Assembly: GCF_003018255.1 (NCBI RefSeq) | Contig: NZ_CP027440.1 | Length of the DNA stretch: 64,000 bases | Source of the DNA: Escherichia coli | GTDB lineage: Bacteria; Pseudomonadota; Gammaproteobacteria; Enterobacterales; Enterobacteriaceae | Strand: one strand, 5' to 3' | Shown here: piece after piece, positions 1-15,100 of the stretch | How positions within the stretch are numbered: position 1 is the stretch's first letter | How the letters are laid out: each line of letters starts with the position of its first letter | Notes under the pieces: generated by a model | Database searches by the model: none | What the model was told of the DNA's origin: nothing | What the model saw: the letters and a program-made list of their open reading frames with translations, nothing else | Made by a program: the position numbers and the translations under genes

Positions 1-663
1 CGTAAAGCAGCGCAATCTGACCCGAACTGTTTCTTTATTGATGACGAGAATTCCCGCACGTTGTTCCTTGGGTATTCCGTCGCTGGCCAGCGTCTTAAAG
101 CGCAATTTGCCGAGCAAGGTCGTATTGTCGATGCTGATAACCCTCTGTTTGTCTATCTGCCGTGTGGTGTTGGCGGTGGTCCTGGTGGCGTCGCATTCGG
201 GCTTAAACTGGCATTTGGCGATCATGTTCACTGCTTTTTTGCCGAACCAACGCACTCCCCTTGTATGCTGTTAGGCGTCCATACAGGATTACACGATCAG
301 ATTTCTGTTCAGGATATTGGTATCGATAACCTTACCGCAGCGGATGGCCTTGCAGTTGGTCGCGCATCAGGCTTTGTCGGGCGGGCAATGGAGCGTTTAC
401 TGGATGGCTTCTATACCCTTAGCGATCAAACCATGTATGACATGCTTGGCTGGCTGACGCAGGAAGAAGGTATTCGTCTTGAACCTTCGGCACTGGCGGG
501 TATGGCCGGACCTCAGCGCGTGTGTGCATCAGTAAGTTACCAACAGATGCACGGTTTCAGCGCAGAACAACTGCATAATGCCACTCATCTGGTGTGGGCG
601 ACGGGAGGTGGAATGGTGCCGGAAGAAGAGATGGAGCAATATCTGGCAAAAGGCCGTTCATAA
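1..663 (+). CDS. dsdA: D-serine dehydratase, C-terminal part (5' end outside window)
   Basis: Frame open from position 1 to stop at 661-663; translation ends ...[13 protein letters not shown], consistent with PLP-dependent D-serine ammonia-lyase; followed by emrY as in E. coli. Confidence 0.88.
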
Positions 664-767
664 CGTTTCAACGCAGCATCGCCATCCTTTCCCTGGGTGA
701 GCGATGCTGCCGATGGCGCAGACTTAAGATCCCCGGTCTTACCTGCTATAATTCTCTCTTTATACCA

Positions 768-2306
768 TCACCCAACGCCTTTCGCTGTAAACGGCGGTTT
801 CGCAAACCAAACCAATACCGTAAGTAAGATAAAAGCAATAGCCGCCATACGGAAAATCTCATTTGCAGAAATTGAAAGTGACTGCTGAGTTATTTCATTA
901 TTAATTTCATTAAGAACTCCTGAAAGCGAACCATAGTATTTATCCATAATTTGTGACGATGAATTAAATACGGGGTTAAATTGATCGATGGTTGCTGTCA
1001 ACTGACTATGGTGTAACGATTCGCGTCGTCCCCACAGCGTCATTGTCAACGACGTACCAACTGATCCTGACAAGGTACGAAAAAAATTACTCATACTCGA
1101 GGCATTGGCAAATTTATTATCTGGCAACCCTGAAAACGAAATCGTTGTTAAGGGTAAAAAGAAACAGGCAACGGCGAATCCCTGGAAAAACTGTGGCAAA
1201 ATGATGCCTGTAAAATCAATCGTTGGCATAAATGTCACAGAACGCCAGTAATAGCAAACCGCATACATCAAAAAACTAAATGTCACCAACAACCGCATAT
1301 CAATTTTGTTGCCATAACGTCCTATCAAAGGTGATATTAATAGCGGCATGATGCCGATGGGCGCATAGGCAAGTCCGGCCCATATCGCATTATACCCCAT
1401 CGTTTCCTGGAGTAACTGCGGCATAAGGACTATCGCCCCAGAGTAAAATAAATACGCGCATGTGATACTCACAATACCAATGGTGAAATTACGGGACTTA
1501 AACAAACTGAGATCAAGAATCGGATTCTCTGAGGTCGACTCCCAAATGACTAAAGAAATCAGAGAAATAACTGACACTACTGTTAGTATTATTATTGTAC
1601 TCGAGTTGAACCAATCCAGATCGCGCCCTTTATCAAGCATTATCTGCAAGCCACCAACACCGAGCACTAACAGGGTCAGTCCTGGTAGATTCATTTTGAC
1701 CGGTGAAGTCTCAGTTTCTCTTCCTTTAAGTAAGGTTAAGCATAATGTCAGAACGATAATCCCCATAGGGACATTGATTAAAAATATCCAACCCCAGCTA
1801 AAGTTATCGCAAATATAGCCGCCCAATATCGGCCCACATATCGGAGCGATAATTACGGTCATTGACCATAATGCCAAAGCAAATGTTCTTTTTTCTGGCG
1901 GATAATTCCTTAATAATAAACTCTGTGACAGTGGAATTAACGGCCCCGCCATTAAGCCCTGAACGACTCTAAAAAATATCAGCACATCAAGATTGGTCGA
2001 TAGGCTACACATTAATGAAGATAGTGAAAAAAAGGTTACTGAAAGTAAAAATAATCTTAATTCGCCTATTCTTTGTGCCAGCCTGCCGGTAACAGGGATC
2101 GCAATGGCATTTGCTACGCCAAACGAAGTGATAACCCAGGTGCCTTCGTCTGTTGATGCTCCCAGAAAGCCAGATATTGTCGGTATTGCGACGTTAGAAA
2201 TAGTGGAATCCAACATTTGCATAAACGTCGCTAAGGACAATGCAATAGTAACGCACCATAACGTCCCACCGGTTAATGGTGCCGGAGTTGATTTAGTGAT
2301 TGCCAT
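768..2306 (-). CDS. emrY: MFS multidrug efflux permease (EmrB-like, 14-TM class)
   Basis: 512-aa ORF, hydrophobic throughout; start overlaps emrK stop at 2306; matches EmrY. Confidence 0.93.
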   Translation of the reverse strand: MAITKSTPAPLTGGTLWCVTIALSLATFMQMLDSTISNVAIPTISGFLGASTDEGTWVITSFGVANAIAIPVTGRLAQRIGELRLFLLSVTFFSLSSLMCSLSTNLDVLIFFRVVQGLMAGPLIPLSQSLLLRNYPPEKRTFALALWSMTVIIAPICGPILGGYICDNFSWGWIFLINVPMGIIVLTLCLTLLKGRETETSPVKMNLPGLTLLVLGVGGLQIMLDKGRDLDWFNSSTIIILTVVSVISLISLVIWESTSENPILDLSLFKSRNFTIGIVSITCAYLFYSGAIVLMPQLLQETMGYNAIWAGLAYAPIGIMPLLISPLIGRYGNKIDMRLLVTFSFLMYAVCYYWRSVTFMPTIDFTGIILPQFFQGFAVACFFLPLTTISFSGLPDNKFANASSMSNFFRTLSGSVGTSLTMTLWGRRESLHHSQLTATIDQFNPVFNSSSQIMDKYYGSLSGVLNEINNEITQQSLSISANEIFRMAAIAFILLTVLVWFAKPPFTAKGVG

Positions 2307-3469
2307 TAAAGTTGTCCATTATGCGAAATAATGTTGCTAATTTCTTTTTCTATCGGAGTAGTATCGATAACTAAAGCCTTACTGGTATAAGCAGGCATGG
2401 AGGTCACGGTTGAAGCCAGCTCAGGCATCTCAGCAATGTCTTCGTCCTTCGTATCAATAGTTGCAGTCATCGATAAACCAATACGTAAGGGATGTTCCAT
2501 GAGTTCTTTTGGATCAAGAGAAACTTCAACCGGTACACGCTGAACGATTTTGATCCAGTTCCCTGTCGCATTTTGTGCAGGTAATAAGGAGAACGCATTG
2601 CCGGTTCCCATATTGATTCCTGTCACCCGACCATGAAACACAACATTTTCACCATAAAGATCGCTGATAATATTGACCGATTGACCAATCCGTACATCCG
2701 TGAGTTGTGTTTCTTTAAAGTTGGCATTAACCCACATTTGACGTGCCGGTACGACAGCCATTAACGATTGTCCGGGACTCACTGTTTCGCCGACCTGAAC
2801 ACTTCGCTGGGCAATATAGCCGGTAACAGGACTCTTAATATCCGTACGTTTAAGCGCTAACCAGGCTTCTTTGGTTGCATCTGCCGCTTCAACGACTTGT
2901 GGCTGACGGTTTAATGGTGTGTTCATTACTAAAGCTTTATTCGCTTTATAAGCCTGGATAGCGGCATTCAATGCCGCTTTGCTACTTATTAACGTATCTT
3001 TGGTATGCTCCAGCGTTTCTTTTGAAATAACCCCCTGCTTCGCTAAAGGCACACGACGGTTATAATCTTCTAAAGATTGTTGATACTGAATACGTGCTGA
3101 AGCGACTTCGGCACTGTATTGTTTATCCTGTAAGTACAGTTTATTCGTTTGCCGAACAATATTTGCCAGATTATTTTTAGCTTTATTGAGTGCGATAGTG
3201 GCATCAGTCTTATCCAGTGAGACTAAAATGTCACCCTGTCGAACGTAGTTCGTATCTTTATGATTAACGACAGTGACGCTGCCTGAAACTTGTGCAGAAA
3301 TTGGATCTGCATTCCCCGTGACATAGGCGTCATCTGTACTAATCATGTCTTCTAATTCCATTGACCAATAGGCATAGGCACCTGAAAACGCAATAAATAA
3401 AACTACCGCCAATAAAGAAAAGTATTTTCTTCTGTTAGAATGTTTTTTATTTGAATTAATCTGTTCCAC
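2306..3469 (-). CDS. emrK: Membrane fusion protein of EmrKY efflux pump (HlyD family)
   Basis: 387-aa ORF with N-terminal TM anchor and coiled-coil-like middle; immediately upstream of emrY on same strand. Confidence 0.93.
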   Translation of the reverse strand: MEQINSNKKHSNRRKYFSLLAVVLFIAFSGAYAYWSMELEDMISTDDAYVTGNADPISAQVSGSVTVVNHKDTNYVRQGDILVSLDKTDATIALNKAKNNLANIVRQTNKLYLQDKQYSAEVASARIQYQQSLEDYNRRVPLAKQGVISKETLEHTKDTLISSKAALNAAIQAYKANKALVMNTPLNRQPQVVEAADATKEAWLALKRTDIKSPVTGYIAQRSVQVGETVSPGQSLMAVVPARQMWVNANFKETQLTDVRIGQSVNIISDLYGENVVFHGRVTGINMGTGNAFSLLPAQNATGNWIKIVQRVPVEVSLDPKELMEHPLRIGLSMTATIDTKDEDIAEMPELASTVTSMPAYTSKALVIDTTPIEKEISNIISHNGQL

Positions 3470-3642
3470 TTTTATCTCTCATTTCGCATAGATGAAATTT
3501 ATGAATTGAATGAAAAGAGTATTCATTCTTCATATCAAACACAGTGCATGTGTTGCACATTATCCCAGGAACGTTGGAGGCCTAATTTAAATGAGGTGCA
3601 AAAAAAACAACAGAGGACTAAACCGTGGCTTTTGCAATACAA

Positions 3643-3660
3643 TTCTTACGCATGTAGGAT
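3643..3660. promoter_or_regulatory. EvgA-box-like imperfect inverted repeat in emrK-evgA divergent promoter region
   Basis: TTCTTACG-CA-TGTAGGAT resembles the reported EvgA 18-bp motif TTCPyTACA-N2-TGTAPuGAA; about 175 bp upstream of emrK start. Confidence 0.5.
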
Positions 3661-3884
3661 TAGTGAGAAGACTTATAGTGCTAATGTGAAACTATAAATC
3701 ATCGGTACAATCCCTGATTTTATTGTTGACATTTCATTTATGCCGACTATTTATATGGTATACTTGTTGAATTATCTTAAAGGAAGCTCAAATTTTCTTA
3801 TTTTGATTGAGAAAATGAGATGATGCCTTATGTCTGTATTACTACAGGGAGAAGGGAAATGCTTCATTGCAAAGGGAATAATCT

Positions 3885-4499
3885 ATGAACGCAATAATTA
3901 TTGATGACCATCCTCTTGCTATCGCAGCAATTCGTAATTTATTGATCAAAAACGATATTGAAATCTTAGCGGAGTTGACTGAAGGGGGAAGTGCCGTTCA
4001 GCGGGTGGAAACACTTAAACCTGATATCGTCATCATTGATGTCGATATCCCCGGAGTTAACGGTATCCAGGTGTTAGAAACGCTGAGGAAGCGCCAATAT
4101 AGCGGAATTATTATTATCGTCTCCGCTAAAAATGACCATTTTTACGGGAAACATTGTGCTGATGCTGGCGCTAATGGTTTCGTGAGTAAAAAAGAAGGCA
4201 TGAACAATATCATTGCAGCTATTGAAGCTGCAAAAAATGGCTACTGCTATTTCCCCTTCTCTCTCAACCGGTTTGTTGGAAGTTTAACGTCCGACCAGCA
4301 AAAACTCGACTCCTTATCGAAACAAGAAATTAGTGTCATGCGGTATATTCTTGATGGCAAGGATAATAATGACATTGCTGAAAAAATGTTCATCAGCAAC
4401 AAAACTGTCAGCACTTATAAAAGTCGCTTGATGGAAAAATTAGAATGCAAATCACTGATGGATCTTTACACATTCGCACAACGTAACAAAATCGGCTAA
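3885..4499 (+). CDS. evgA: Response regulator EvgA (receiver domain plus LuxR-type HTH)
   Basis: 204-aa ORF; receiver motifs (IIIDDHP, DIVIIDVDIPG) and C-terminal HTH (ISNKTVSTYKSRLMEKL); AAGGGA Shine-Dalgarno upstream. Confidence 0.95.
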   Translation: MNAIIIDDHPLAIAAIRNLLIKNDIEILAELTEGGSAVQRVETLKPDIVIIDVDIPGVNGIQVLETLRKRQYSGIIIIVSAKNDHFYGKHCADAGANGFVSKKEGMNNIIAAIEAAKNGYCYFPFSLNRFVGSLTSDQQKLDSLSKQEISVMRYILDGKDNNDIAEKMFISNKTVSTYKSRLMEKLECKSLMDLYTFAQRNKIG

Positions 4500-4503
4500 C
4501 CAC

Positions 4504-7500
4504 ATGAAGTTTTTACCCTATATTTTTCTTCTCTGTTGTGGTCTTTGGTCGACCATAAGTTTCGCAGACGGAGATTACATCGAATATCGTGGCATCAGTA
4601 GTAACAACCGTGTCACACTTGATCCACTACGTCTGAGCAACAAGGAATTACGTTGGCTCGCGAGCAAAAAAAATCTTGTGATTGCAGTACACAAGTCCCA
4701 AACAGCTACGTTGTTGCATACCGATTCGCAGCAACGGATTCGTGGTATTAATGCTGATTATTTAAATCTTTTAAAAAGAGCGTTAAATATCAAATTAACA
4801 CTCCGGGAATACGCAGATCATCAAAAAGCAATGGACGCGCTGGAAGACGGTGAAGTTGATATAGTGTTATCACATTTAGTTGCTTCGCCGCCTCTTAATG
4901 ATGACATTGCTGCAACCAATCCTCTGATAATTACCTTTCCGGCGCTGGTCACTACCCTTCACGATTCAATGCGACCGCTTACCTCATCAAAACCAGTAAA
5001 TATTGCTCGAGTAGCAAATTATCCCCCAGACGAGGTAATTCATCAATCATTTCCAAAAGCAACAATTATCTCTTTTACAAATTTATATCAGGCATTAGCA
5101 TCCGTCTCAGCCGGACAGAATGATTACTTTATTGGTAGTAACATCATTACCAGCAGTATGATTTCCCGTTATTTTACTCACTCCTTAAATGTAGTGAAGT
5201 ATTATAACTCACCGCGTCAATATAACTTTTTATTAACCAGAAAAGATTCTATCGTTCTTAATGAAGTACTCAATCGATTTGTTGATGCTTTAACAAATGA
5301 AGTTCGCTATGAAGTATCACAAAATTGGCTTGATACAGGAAATCTGGCCTTTCTGAACAAACCATTAGAACTCACTGAACATGAAAAACAGTGGATTAAG
5401 CAGCATCCCGATTTAAAGGTGCTAGAAAATCCTTACTCGCCACCCTATTCTATGACAGATGAAACTGGCTCAGTTCGGGGCGTGATGGGTGATATTCTTA
5501 ATATTATTACCTTGCAAACAGGTTTAAATTTTTCTCCGATCACCGTTTCACACAATATTCATGCTGGGACACAGCTTAACCCCGGTGGATGGGATATATT
5601 GCCCGCCGCTATTTATAGTGAAGATCGAGAAAATAATGTTTCATTTGCTGAAGCCTTCATAACAACGCCTTACGTTTTTGTCATGCAAAAAGCGCCTGAC
5701 AGTGAACAAACATTAAAAAAAGGAATGAAAGTTGCCATTCCCTATTATTATGAGCTTCATTCGCAATTAAAAGAGATGTATCCGGAGGTAGAGTGGATAA
5801 AAGTCGATAACGCCAGCGCTGCATTTCACAAGGTTAAAGAAGGTGAACTTGATGCTCTGGTCGCGACACAGTTAAATTCGCGTTACATGATCGACCATTA
5901 CTATCCTAATGAACTTTATCATTTTCTTATTCCCGGCGTTCAGAATGCATCACTTTCGTTCGCTTTTCCTCGCGGAGAACCGGAACTTAAGGATATTATT
6001 AATAAAGCACTGAATGCAATTCCCCCAAGCGAAGTTCTGCGCCTGACCGAAAAATGGATTAAAATGCCCAATGTGACCATTGACACATGGGACCTCTATA
6101 GCGAGCAATTTTATATTGTTACGACATTATCCGTTTTATTAGTTGGCAGTAGCCTTTTATGGGGATTCTACCTGTTACGCTCAGTTCGTCGTCGTAAAGT
6201 TATTCAGGGTGATTTAGAAAACCAAATATCATTCCGGAAAGCGCTCTCGGATTCCTTACCGAATCCAACTTATGTTGTAAACTGGCAAGGTAATGTCATT
6301 AGTCACAATAGTGCATTTGAACATTATTTCACTGCTGATTACTATAAAAATGCAATGTTACCATTAGAAAACAGTGAATCCCCCTTTAAAGATGTTTTTT
6401 CTAATACGCATGAAGTCACAGCAGAAACGAAAGAAAACCGAACAATATACACACAGGTATTTGAAATTGATAATGGCATCGAGAAAAGATGCATTAATCA
6501 CTGGCATACCTTATGTAATCTGCCAGCAAGCGAACATGCTGTTTATATTTGTGGTTGGCAAGATATTACCGAGACGCGTGATTTAATTCATGCACTCGAA
6601 GTAGAGAGAAATAAAGCGATCAATGCAACTGTCGCAAAAAGCCAGTTTCTGGCAACAATGAGTCACGAAATAAGAACACCAATAAGCTCCATTATGGGCT
6701 TCCTGGAACTTCTGTCGGGTTCTGGTCTTAGCAAGGAACAACGGGTGGAGGCGATTTCACTTGCCTACGCCACCGGACAATCACTCCTCGGCTTAATTGG
6801 TGAAATCCTTGATGTCGACAAAATTGAATCGGGTAACTATCAACTTCAACCACAATGGGTCGATATCCCTACTTTAGTCCAGAACACTTGTCACTCTTTC
6901 GGTGCGATTGCTGCAAGCAAATCGATCGCATTAAGTTGCAGCAGTACGCTTCCTGAACGCTACCTGGTTAAGATCGACCCTCAGGCGTTTAAGCAGGTCT
7001 TATCTAATTTACTGAGTAATGCTCTCAAATTTACTACCGAGGGGGCAGTAAAAATTACGACCTCCCTGGGTCACATTGATGACAACCACGCTGTTATCAA
7101 AATGACGATTATGGATTCTGGAAGTGGATTATCGCAGGAAGAACAACAACAACTGTTTAAACGCTATAGCCAAACAAGTGCAGGTCGTCAGCAAACAGGT
7201 TCTGGTTTAGGCTTAATGATCTGCAAAGAATTAATTAAAAACATGCAGGGCGATTTGTCATTAGAAAGTCATCCAGGCATAGGAACGATATTTACGATCA
7301 CAATCCCGGTAGAAATTACCCAACAAGTGGCGGCTGTCGAGGCAAAAGCAGAACAACCTATAACACTACCTGAAAAGTTGAGCATATTAATCGCGGATGA
7401 TCATCCGACCAACAGGCTATTACTCAAACGCCAGCTAAATCTATTAGGATATGATGTTGATGAAGCCACTGATGGTGTGCAAGCGCTACACAAAGTCAGT

Positions 7501-13384: not shown

Positions 13385-13635
13385 AGCAATACCTATTAGT
13401 TAATTAAATATATGTTAATTTAGCGTTTATTTAAGGCATAATGCTCTCTATAAATAATCCGCAAAATATCGTCGTAGCTGCACTCGATATTTTTAAATTC
13501 CTGTATCAAGTGCTGATAATCATTTCATCGCCACTTCCAATTCCTTTCTGCATGGTAAGTAGTGAGGACGAAAAGAAGAATATGATAAATATTGGTTCGC
13601 GGTAATCAGAGAGGGCCGCGACATTTGTGATGTTA

Positions 13636-13653
13636 TTCTTACAACTGTAAGAA
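13636..13653. promoter_or_regulatory. Perfect EvgA-consensus palindrome upstream of frc
   Basis: TTCTTACA-AC-TGTAAGAA read directly from sequence; exact match to TTCPyTACA-N2-TGTAPuGAA; about 250 bp upstream of frc start. Confidence 0.65.
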
Positions 13654-13896: not shown

Positions 13897-14529
13897 TTAG
13901 TTCACAAACAGTGCTTCGCTATCGACGATGATTCCATCTTCCGCACCTTTAAGCGCCAGGTTTGCCTCGTAGTATTGCTTTTTATCAAGCAGTTTCTGCG
14001 CATCAGCAAGTGCATTACGAGTCTGTTTGAGCGGCATCAGATATTGGTTTTCCATTACACCAACACCGGCCAGGCGAAGCTCTTCCATTGCGCCCTTTTT
14101 ATCCCCTTTCGCCATTTTTTCGTTGGCAATTTTTATCGCGGCTTCTTTTTCGGGTGTCGCTACATAACTCTCAGAAATTCCGACAGATGCATTAATGACA
14201 ATATATTGGTCATCATTGAGATTGGTCTTTTTACCTGGCTTAGCGAACTTTGCCCATTCGGTACTGTCATCTGACAACAAAGCTGAAGCTTCATTGGTCA
14301 GTTCTTTTGCCTTTTCCGGATCGCCATGAAACAGAGCCAGGCGCGCTACCTGCACGTCACGCATCGCATATAAACCTTGTTCAGAGATACGCTCTGCTGC
14401 TGCCGTTTTCTGGGTTTGCTGAACTTGCTGAGTTTGCTGTTGTGCCGCTACCGGTGCATTATCAGCAGCCCATACAGTTGAAGATGCCAGAATTGCTGTG
14501 ACCATCGTAGCCATAATTAAACGTTTCAT
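13897..14529 (-). CDS. yfdX: Periplasmic YfdX-family protein
   Basis: 210-aa ORF with signal peptide ([21 protein letters not shown]), Q-rich linker; first gene of the yfdX-frc-oxc-yfdVE cluster. Confidence 0.9.
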
Positions 14530-14626
14530 ACTTACCTCATTCTTTAACAGTTTTAGAAAACGCCGCCATCATATTGGGTGAGCATGAAATGAGAAATCAG
14601 AGAGCAACGGTCATTTTGAAAGGGTT

Positions 14627-14682
14627 ATCTTACAGTTGTAGTTATTATCGCAAGAAGTATTTTAGTCTTACAATTGTAGGAA
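14627..14682. promoter_or_regulatory. Two tandem EvgA-box-like inverted repeats upstream of yfdX
   Basis: ATCTTACA-GT-TGTAGTTA (14627-14644) and GTCTTACA-AT-TGTAGGAA (14665-14682), 100-150 bp upstream of yfdX start. Confidence 0.55.
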
Positions 14683-14824
14683 TATGCTTCCTGTCACAGA
14701 GAACTATTCTTATATACCACAAAGAGATGTCATTTATTATATCGATGTAAATACTGATTAATTAAATGTAAATACAGCCATAACATCGTAGGTTCTCAGT
14801 GAACCATTTTCAGGATAACTTTCT

Positions 14825-15100
14825 ATGAAAGTAAACTTAATGATTTTTAGCTTATTTTTATTGGTCTCTATTATGGCATGCAATGTTTTTGCATTTTCCA
14901 TTTCTGGTGGTAGAAGTGAGACGAGCTATAAAGAGACAGAAAAAACGTCAGTGATGACGACAACTCATTCTACAAAACTTCAGCCATCACAGGCGATTTT
15001 GTTTAAGTTGAGAGAAGATGCGCCACCATTAAATCTCACAGAAGACATTACGCCCCCTTTTTCGACAAAGGCGAATTATCTTATTCATCCTGTGCGATAG
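14825..15100 (+). CDS. ypdI: Small secreted/lipoprotein-like protein
   Basis: 91-aa ORF with hydrophobic N-terminus (MKVNLMIFSLFLLVSIMAC); position matches ypdI. Confidence 0.75.
   Translation: MKVNLMIFSLFLLVSIMACNVFAFSISGGRSETSYKETEKTSVMTTTHSTKLQPSQAILFKLREDAPPLNLTEDITPPFSTKANYLIHPVR

Follow-up and report, generated by a model that had tools for sequence, protein, structure and literature searches.

The divergent spacer between yfdX and ypdI of Escherichia coli carries two copies of the EvgA box, and the question that this locus raises is which of the two genes each copy serves. A sequence-only reading had assigned both to yfdX, as tandem sites that imply cooperative binding of EvgA. Here, this assignment is weighed against an arrangement in which the two boxes stand back to back, one for each gene.

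The locus and its two EvgA boxes

The genes in the window (the whole stretch of DNA that was analysed, 64 kb) follow the order emrY-emrK, evgA-evgS, yfdE-yfdV-oxc-frc-yfdX, ypdI, and yfdY-lpxP. The divergent spacer between yfdX and ypdI measures 295 bp, harbors both repeats, and differs from K-12 at a single position. The repeats correspond to the EvgA box of the EvgAS acid-resistance regulon (TTCPyTACA-N2-TGTAPuGAA); motif and regulon are the same, and the locus lies beside evgAS. This box was described by Masuda and Church in 2003. Its reference sites lie upstream of ydeP, safA (b1500), yegR, frc (yfdW), yfdX, and emrK. PMC3720670, which cites their work, states that EvgA binds inverted repeats inducing yfdX and yfdWUVE. 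That yfdX, frc, and emrK are preceded by EvgA boxes is thus known since 2003, and direct control of yfdX by EvgA via the inverted repeat, the direct targeting that the sequence-only reading named, is likewise published. The features of the locus are:

13897-14529, minus strand: coding sequence of yfdX, which is induced by EvgA and encodes a periplasmic protein of the YfdX family
14627-14644, no strand: EvgA box 1, ATCTTACAGTTGTAGTTA, stronger half-site toward yfdX, proposed yfdX operator with its centre near -74.5
14665-14682, no strand: EvgA box 2, GTCTTACAATTGTAGGAA, perfect half-site TGTAGGAA toward ypdI, proposed ypdI operator
14825-15100, plus strand: ypdI coding sequence, putative lipoprotein of 91 amino acids, proposed second EvgA target of the spacer
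13636-13653, no strand: EvgA box upstream of frc, perfect, reference site
3643-3660, no strand: EvgA box in the emrK-evgA spacer, reference site

The two motif copies upstream of yfdX were found as described before, by exact sequence match, with 38 bp from the start of box 1 to the start of box 2. Box 2 has one mismatch to TTCYTACANNTGTARGAA and box 1 has three, all of them at outer positions, and both boxes carry the 12-base core TCTTACA..TGTAG without a mismatch. Two of the three mismatches of box 1 lie in its promoter-distal half; this half is likewise degenerate in the safA, ydeP, and emrK boxes.

A scan of the 64-kb window for sites with at most three mismatches to TTCYTACANNTGTARGAA returns four (3643 in the emrK/evgA spacer, 13636 upstream of frc, box 1, and box 2), compared to an expectation of 0.60; at least four sites occur in 0 of 100 shuffles. 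These sites bear out the earlier count of three motif-carrying promoters in the window (emrK, yfdX, and frc). A position weight matrix (PWM) was then built from the five non-yfdX boxes only, namely those of emrK, frc, safA, ydeP, and yegR, the last three being located upstream of these genes in the K-12 sequence. In the PWM search of the window, both boxes rank third (box 2, 19.2 bits) and fourth (box 1, 13.8 bits) with a matrix made without them, and the next site scores 10.9 bits. Box 1 is weaker than any reference EvgA box (13.8 versus 22-26 bits). Of 3,000,000 Markov-random positions, 11 reach the score of box 1 and none that of box 2; the former amounts to 3.7e-6 per random position, so that about 0.001 sites of this level are expected in the spacer. 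A chance origin of the two boxes is ruled out by the mismatch scan with shuffles and by the PWM comparison with random positions. The pair was also considered as a simple local duplication, which was rejected because the flanks of box 1 and box 2 are unrelated.

A promoter layout shared by EvgA targets

To obtain the layout of EvgA-dependent promoters, the first 80 nt that follow each reference box on the side of its gene were read (emrK, frc, safA, ydeP, and yegR). All five take on the same arrangement, in which the box is followed by 25 nt, a TCYTAT/TCTGAT-like element, and a -10-like hexamer at offset 53 or 54. The element at offset 26-31 reads TCYTAT, TCTGAT, or TCCTCT in every one of them. 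The best-conserved 6-nt window within the 80 nt starts at offset 26 and has the form TC[CT][TG][AC]T; its information content is reached by 0 of 5000 shuffles and 0 of 5000 random circular shifts. The hexamers at offset 53 or 54 share the pattern T-A-n-n-n-T (TAAATT, TATTCT, TATATT, TAATTT, and TATTAT). The five promoters are not fully independent as references, as safA and ydeP look paralogous, and likewise frc and yfdX.

The layout is anchored to a transcription start by the 5′ leader of ydeP that was used in PMC11210196 (178 nt, -178 to +10). Provided that this leader reflects the mapped start site, a length of 178 nt puts the start 66 nt after the box and the box centre at -74.5, which brings the hexamer to -10 and the offset-26 element to -40 to -35.

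Half-site scoring shows that the promoter-proximal half is the stronger one in safA, ydeP, and yegR, the three boxes with the most unequal halves; the halves of the frc box are symmetric, and emrK shows a slight advantage of the distal half.

Some further sequence is shared between individual promoters. In both the frc promoter (13583-13635) and the box 1 promoter of yfdX (14574-14626), CTCTCTGATT occupies the same offsets (23-32), CAAA(A)TG is found at almost the same ones (9-15), and CCAATAT follows farther down; judged by these matches, the two adjacent promoters look paralogous. The emrK (window 3672-3679) and safA (retrieved locus 6101-6108) promoters share the 8-mer ACTATAAG, which in both is located exactly 12-19 nt upstream of the EvgA box. 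ATTTAAACACTA-GAGAG is common to ydeP and yegR around the presumed start site.

A probable gene for each box

In the yfdX-ypdI spacer, the pattern TC[CT][TG][AC]T has only two matches on both strands, and both lie outward of a box, exactly at offset 26. Together with the -10-like hexamers, the elements are:

14596-14601, minus strand: proximal element TCTGAT, 26-31 nt from box 1 toward yfdX (about -40 to -35)
14568-14573, minus strand: -10-like hexamer TATGAT for yfdX, offset 54-59 from box 1, read as TTCTCA-16-TATGAT by a promoter scan
14708-14713, plus strand: proximal element TCTTAT, 26-31 nt from box 2 toward ypdI
14735-14740, plus strand: -10-like hexamer TATTAT for ypdI, offset 53-58 from box 2

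The position of the boxes relative to these promoters is the same as in ydeP, safA, yegR, frc, and emrK. The difference from the reference sites is that two boxes occupy one spacer and face outward toward divergent genes. In the inward directions (box 2 toward yfdX and box 1 toward ypdI), neither an offset-26 element nor a -10-like hexamer is found. The stronger half of each box also faces outward. Extrapolation from the ydeP leader predicts that transcription of yfdX starts near 14561 (about 2494434 in K-12 NC_000913.3) and that of ypdI near 14748 (about 2494621), which leaves 5′ UTRs of about 32 and about 77 nt, respectively. The simple promoter scan did not call the plus-strand promoter for ypdI, the text portion of a Cappable-seq supplement gives no start site at the yfdX-ypdI locus, and a literature search for EvgA ChIP, DAP, or SELEX data on the locus gave nothing usable.

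It is somewhat better than an even chance that the two boxes form a back-to-back pair in which box 1 serves the yfdX promoter and box 2 the ypdI promoter. We infer the start sites, the occupancy by EvgA, and the pairing of boxes with genes, and it is the geometry of the spacer on which the pairing rests. In the proposed mechanism, EvgS would phosphorylate EvgA at mildly acidic pH, and dimers of this NarL/FixJ-type response regulator on both boxes would turn on both genes. One dimer on box 1 would activate yfdX from about -74.5, with TCTGAT at about -40 to -35, TATGAT as the -10 hexamer, and transcription starting near 14561. One dimer on box 2 would activate ypdI from the equivalent position, with TCTTAT at the same offset, TATTAT as the -10 hexamer, and a start near 14748.

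Conservation within Escherichia and spacer alleles

Eight spacers were aligned (the window, K-12, five diverse E. coli, and one divergent Escherichia representative). Variation is found in 57 of the 295 columns, and it affects 0 of 24 core box positions versus 57 of 271 positions elsewhere (Fisher p=0.0046). Inside the boxes, it is confined to the N2 positions, and the specified bases of box 1 and box 2 are under purifying selection. Both proximal elements and both -10-like hexamers are invariant in the eight sequences. The gap between the boxes is 20 bp long and includes a hypervariable stretch (14654-14660) that has been rewritten in different lineages. Next to this stretch lies one conserved element:

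14644-14652, minus strand: TGCGATAAT, extended -10-like element between the boxes, invariant in Escherichia and also present in Yersinia

Combined with TTGTAA (14668-14673, inside box 2), TGCGATAAT makes up a promoter-like site with its start inside box 1. Rfam identified no structured RNA in the spacer.

The yfdX-ypdI spacer is found in 5413 of 5426 complete E. coli genomes. In E. coli AR_0119 (retrieved locus 299-391) and five further matches, a tandem duplication of 38 bp between the boxes raises their number to three; in AR_0119, it appears as an insertion at window 14627-14664. The three-box allele occurs in about 8% of complete E. coli genomes, an estimate based on the 418 records in the 90-95% identity band and on a further search, in which 30 evenly spaced rows were taken and the first 3 are three-box alleles. 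Both outer geometries are kept in this allele. Its middle box is a hybrid of box 2 and box 1, TCTTACAATTGTAGTTA, which is a signature of unequal recombination between the boxes. The middle unit is rearranged in E. coli BS-04 (retrieved locus 235-316) and contains TAGTTATTACCAAAATTTATACAATTGTAGTTA. One metagenomic E. coli contig (290/329) has a box spacing of 39 bp, which may be a sequencing error. In E. coli ETEC6 (NZ_CP041627.1, 2675592-2675985), the yfdX-side half of the spacer has a match that runs through box 1 into the next unit. An IS5/IS1182-family transposase is annotated at this match, which suggests an IS insertion in or beside the control region.

The boxes in other genera

A YfdX scan of the genome collection identified loci in Yersinia vastinensis (84% amino acid identity) and in six Buttiauxella (58-60%). 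The Buttiauxella loci contain one box, TTCTGACATATGTAAGAC or ATCTGACAAGTGTCAGAC, at the position of box 1, and all six have TCTGAT at offset 26-31 and TATTCT at 54-59. Buttiauxella yfdX adjoins a gene for an EvgS/BvgS-type hybrid kinase. In Buttiauxella noackiae (retrieved locus 413-6583), yfdX is located between genes for a PLP-dependent decarboxylase and a DUF308 protein and the hybrid sensor kinase gene. The decarboxylase is probably a glutamate decarboxylase, and the DUF308 membrane protein is possibly HdeD-like. With its variant box TCTGACA-N2-TGTCAGA, the Buttiauxella yfdX locus looks like a compact acid-resistance island.

In Yersinia vastinensis, both boxes are present 38 bp apart, and the frc box is also kept, while arsBC takes the place of ypdI. 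Box 2 is degraded, with core mismatches that lower its score from 19.2 to 11.5 bits, and the TCTTAT element on the ypdI side is lost; the box 1 geometry (TCTGAT, and TAT..T at 54-59) is intact. The yfdX-frc cluster of this species, which carries E. coli-type EvgA boxes, is located directly downstream of arsB-arsC (NZ_CACVAF010000001.1, retrieved locus 2849-5379) and by its sequence looks like a horizontal acquisition from an Escherichia-like source. As a degraded box 2 is kept in Y. vastinensis without ypdI, box 2 could also help yfdX. YpdI homologs are limited to Escherichia and Shigella, so that comparison of the ypdI side is confined to these genera. Four apparently divergent YpdI homologs were discarded as poor-quality contigs of ordinary E. 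coli.

Expression of yfdX and ypdI

Among the genes of the cluster, yfdX is reported to be by far the most strongly induced by EvgA. It is listed with log2 fold changes of 4.89 and 5.23 in the acid-stress table of PMC10746267, a study that counts it, together with frc, oxc, and yfdV, as strongly induced by acid. In the same data, ypdI RNA amounts to 0.96-1.25 rpkm at pH 7.6, 9.7-13.1 at pH 5.8, and 2.0-3.4 at pH 4.4, which corresponds to an induction of approximately 10-fold at pH 5.8 (from about 1.1 to about 11 rpkm). ypdI also belongs to the EvgA i-modulon of Sastry et al. (2019), whose supplement gives a ypdI motif match at K-12 2494486, TTTTGAAAGGGTTATCTTACAGTTGTAGT, that contains box 1. 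Upon exposure to glutathione, ypdI is raised 5.5-fold alongside yfdX (9.8-fold), yegR (11.9-fold), and ydeO. From these published data, ypdI, which is not a classical member of the EvgA regulon, is co-regulated with it.

YpdI has no Pfam family and diverges fast within the species, with an identity of only 86-89% for most E. coli clusters. When overproduced, it reportedly activates Rcs and causes mucoidy without RcsF.

Alternative arrangements

If both boxes were tandem operators for yfdX alone, two EvgA dimers would bind cooperatively, and the co-induction of ypdI would be indirect or incidental. This arrangement draws on the fixed 38-bp spacing, which is kept in Escherichia and in Y. vastinensis without ypdI, and on the exceptionally strong induction of yfdX by EvgA. 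BvgA, a related regulator, uses several cooperating dimers as well. The spacing itself, however, points the other way. The box centres are 38 bp or 3.62 turns apart, an angle of 223 degrees, so that the boxes lie on different faces of the DNA, about 137 degrees off the same face. A helically phased pair is expected to be abutting or an integral number of turns apart, whereas a non-integral distance and a hypervariable gap are found here. The two boxes may still cooperate to some extent, but the 3.62-turn spacing, the hypervariability of the gap, and the 38-bp insertion tolerated by about 8% of genomes together argue against a tight cooperative pair. In addition, the perfect half of box 2 points to ypdI, box 2 lacks both the offset-26 element and a -10 hexamer at 53/54 in the direction of yfdX, Buttiauxella drives yfdX with one box, and ypdI is acid-induced. 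Tandem control of yfdX alone is therefore judged rather unlikely, and the claim that the tandem sites imply cooperative binding on yfdX is not supported as stated, considering the spacing, the layout of box 2 toward ypdI only, and the co-regulation of ypdI. The sequence-only reading was right on EvgA and on direct regulation, which are known biology, and probably wrong on the role of the second box.

A shared bidirectional region, in which each box would act on one gene from the primary position (-74.5) and on the other from an auxiliary, far-upstream one (about -112.5), would agree with the nearly mirror-symmetric arrangement. A position near -110 may be usable by EvgA, since the single box of the emrK-evgA spacer lies about -109.5 from the start that is implied by the -124 evgA leader (PMC11210196). 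The three-box allele, however, places the far site at about -150.5 instead of about -112.5, and no obvious counter-selection is seen; it seems quite doubtful that the boxes are shared in this way.

Box 2, being near consensus, might be the only functional site and box 1 a decaying relic of a local duplication. The three mismatches and the lower PWM score of box 1 fit this, and 38-bp unit duplications do occur at the locus. It is nevertheless highly improbable: the core of box 1 is invariant amid variable surroundings, and box 1 is the one kept in position and geometry in Yersinia and Buttiauxella. Its mismatches are outer ones that lie mostly in the distal half, as in safA, ydeP, and emrK, and the flanks of the two boxes bear no relation to each other.

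A box centre at -36.5 is not a usual position for an activator. This is where the centre would fall if a sigma-70 promoter toward yfdX overlapped the boxes (-35 TTGTAA in box 2, extended -10 TGCGATAAT, start in box 1) and were repressed or modulated by EvgA, an arrangement that is given very little credence, as EvgA is reported to induce yfdX strongly rather than to repress it and as the element is missing in Buttiauxella, even though a promoter scan finds TTGTAA-18-GATAAT with a TG extension and TGCGATAAT is kept in Escherichia and Yersinia.

Relation to BvgA and SafA

The EvgA-dependent promoters resemble those of a homologous regulator. In Bordetella, BvgA promoters such as that of fhaB consist of a primary inverted repeat followed by cooperatively bound secondary dimers that reach the -35 region. 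The half-site core of BvgA (TCCTA) is similar, and the primary repeat is far upstream in both systems. The TCYTA-like element at about -40 to -35 of the EvgA targets may correspond to the secondary BvgA sites, from which the yfdX-ypdI pair differs in the distance of its boxes (38 bp versus about 22 bp in BvgA promoters). An array of the BvgA type would have its dimer sites every 21-22 bp or so from the primary repeat to the -35 region, a period to which the spacing of box 1 and box 2 does not conform. In 7 of 7 promoters, a TCYTA-like half-site is located 42 bp from the distal half-site, and no full secondary box of at least 5 bits is present between box and -35. The half-site PWM does not rate TCYTAT as a full EvgA half-site, with the exception of ypdI (7.9 bits). 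The Buttiauxella proximal element resembles the local half-site variant (TCTGAC versus TCTGAT). As a speculation drawn from BvgA, the TCYTAT/TCTGAT element near -35, which resembles the half-site core TCYTA, may be a proximal EvgA contact of low affinity, comparable to the secondary BvgA sites.

A second parallel is the safA promoter. Its EvgA box lies at the same distance, and SafA is a very small protein of the envelope, to which the small YpdI protein belongs as well. SafA connects EvgAS to PhoQP, and overproduced YpdI likewise activates another two-component pathway, Rcs. The two differ in that YpdI is a putative lipoprotein and SafA an inner-membrane peptide. By analogy, ypdI could be a direct EvgA target via box 2 and YpdI a second EvgAS connector, to Rcs as SafA is to PhoQP, with the three-box allele tuning the output. 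This extension is tentative and, taken as a whole, unlikely.

Significance

As a refinement of an already known regulon, the result is small. What is new is the inferred assignment of box 2 to ypdI and one promoter architecture that is common to all EvgA targets examined. The back-to-back reading would make ypdI a direct member of the regulon, and its predictions of the two start sites are precise to a few bases. The natural two-box/three-box polymorphism offers a ready-made comparison of operator number with output. Direct control of ypdI by EvgA, if it holds, would point to a path by which acid sensing could reach Rcs, the envelope-stress and capsule pathway. A YpdI connector, if true, would couple the sensing of mild acid to Rcs and to RcsB, which acid resistance also needs.
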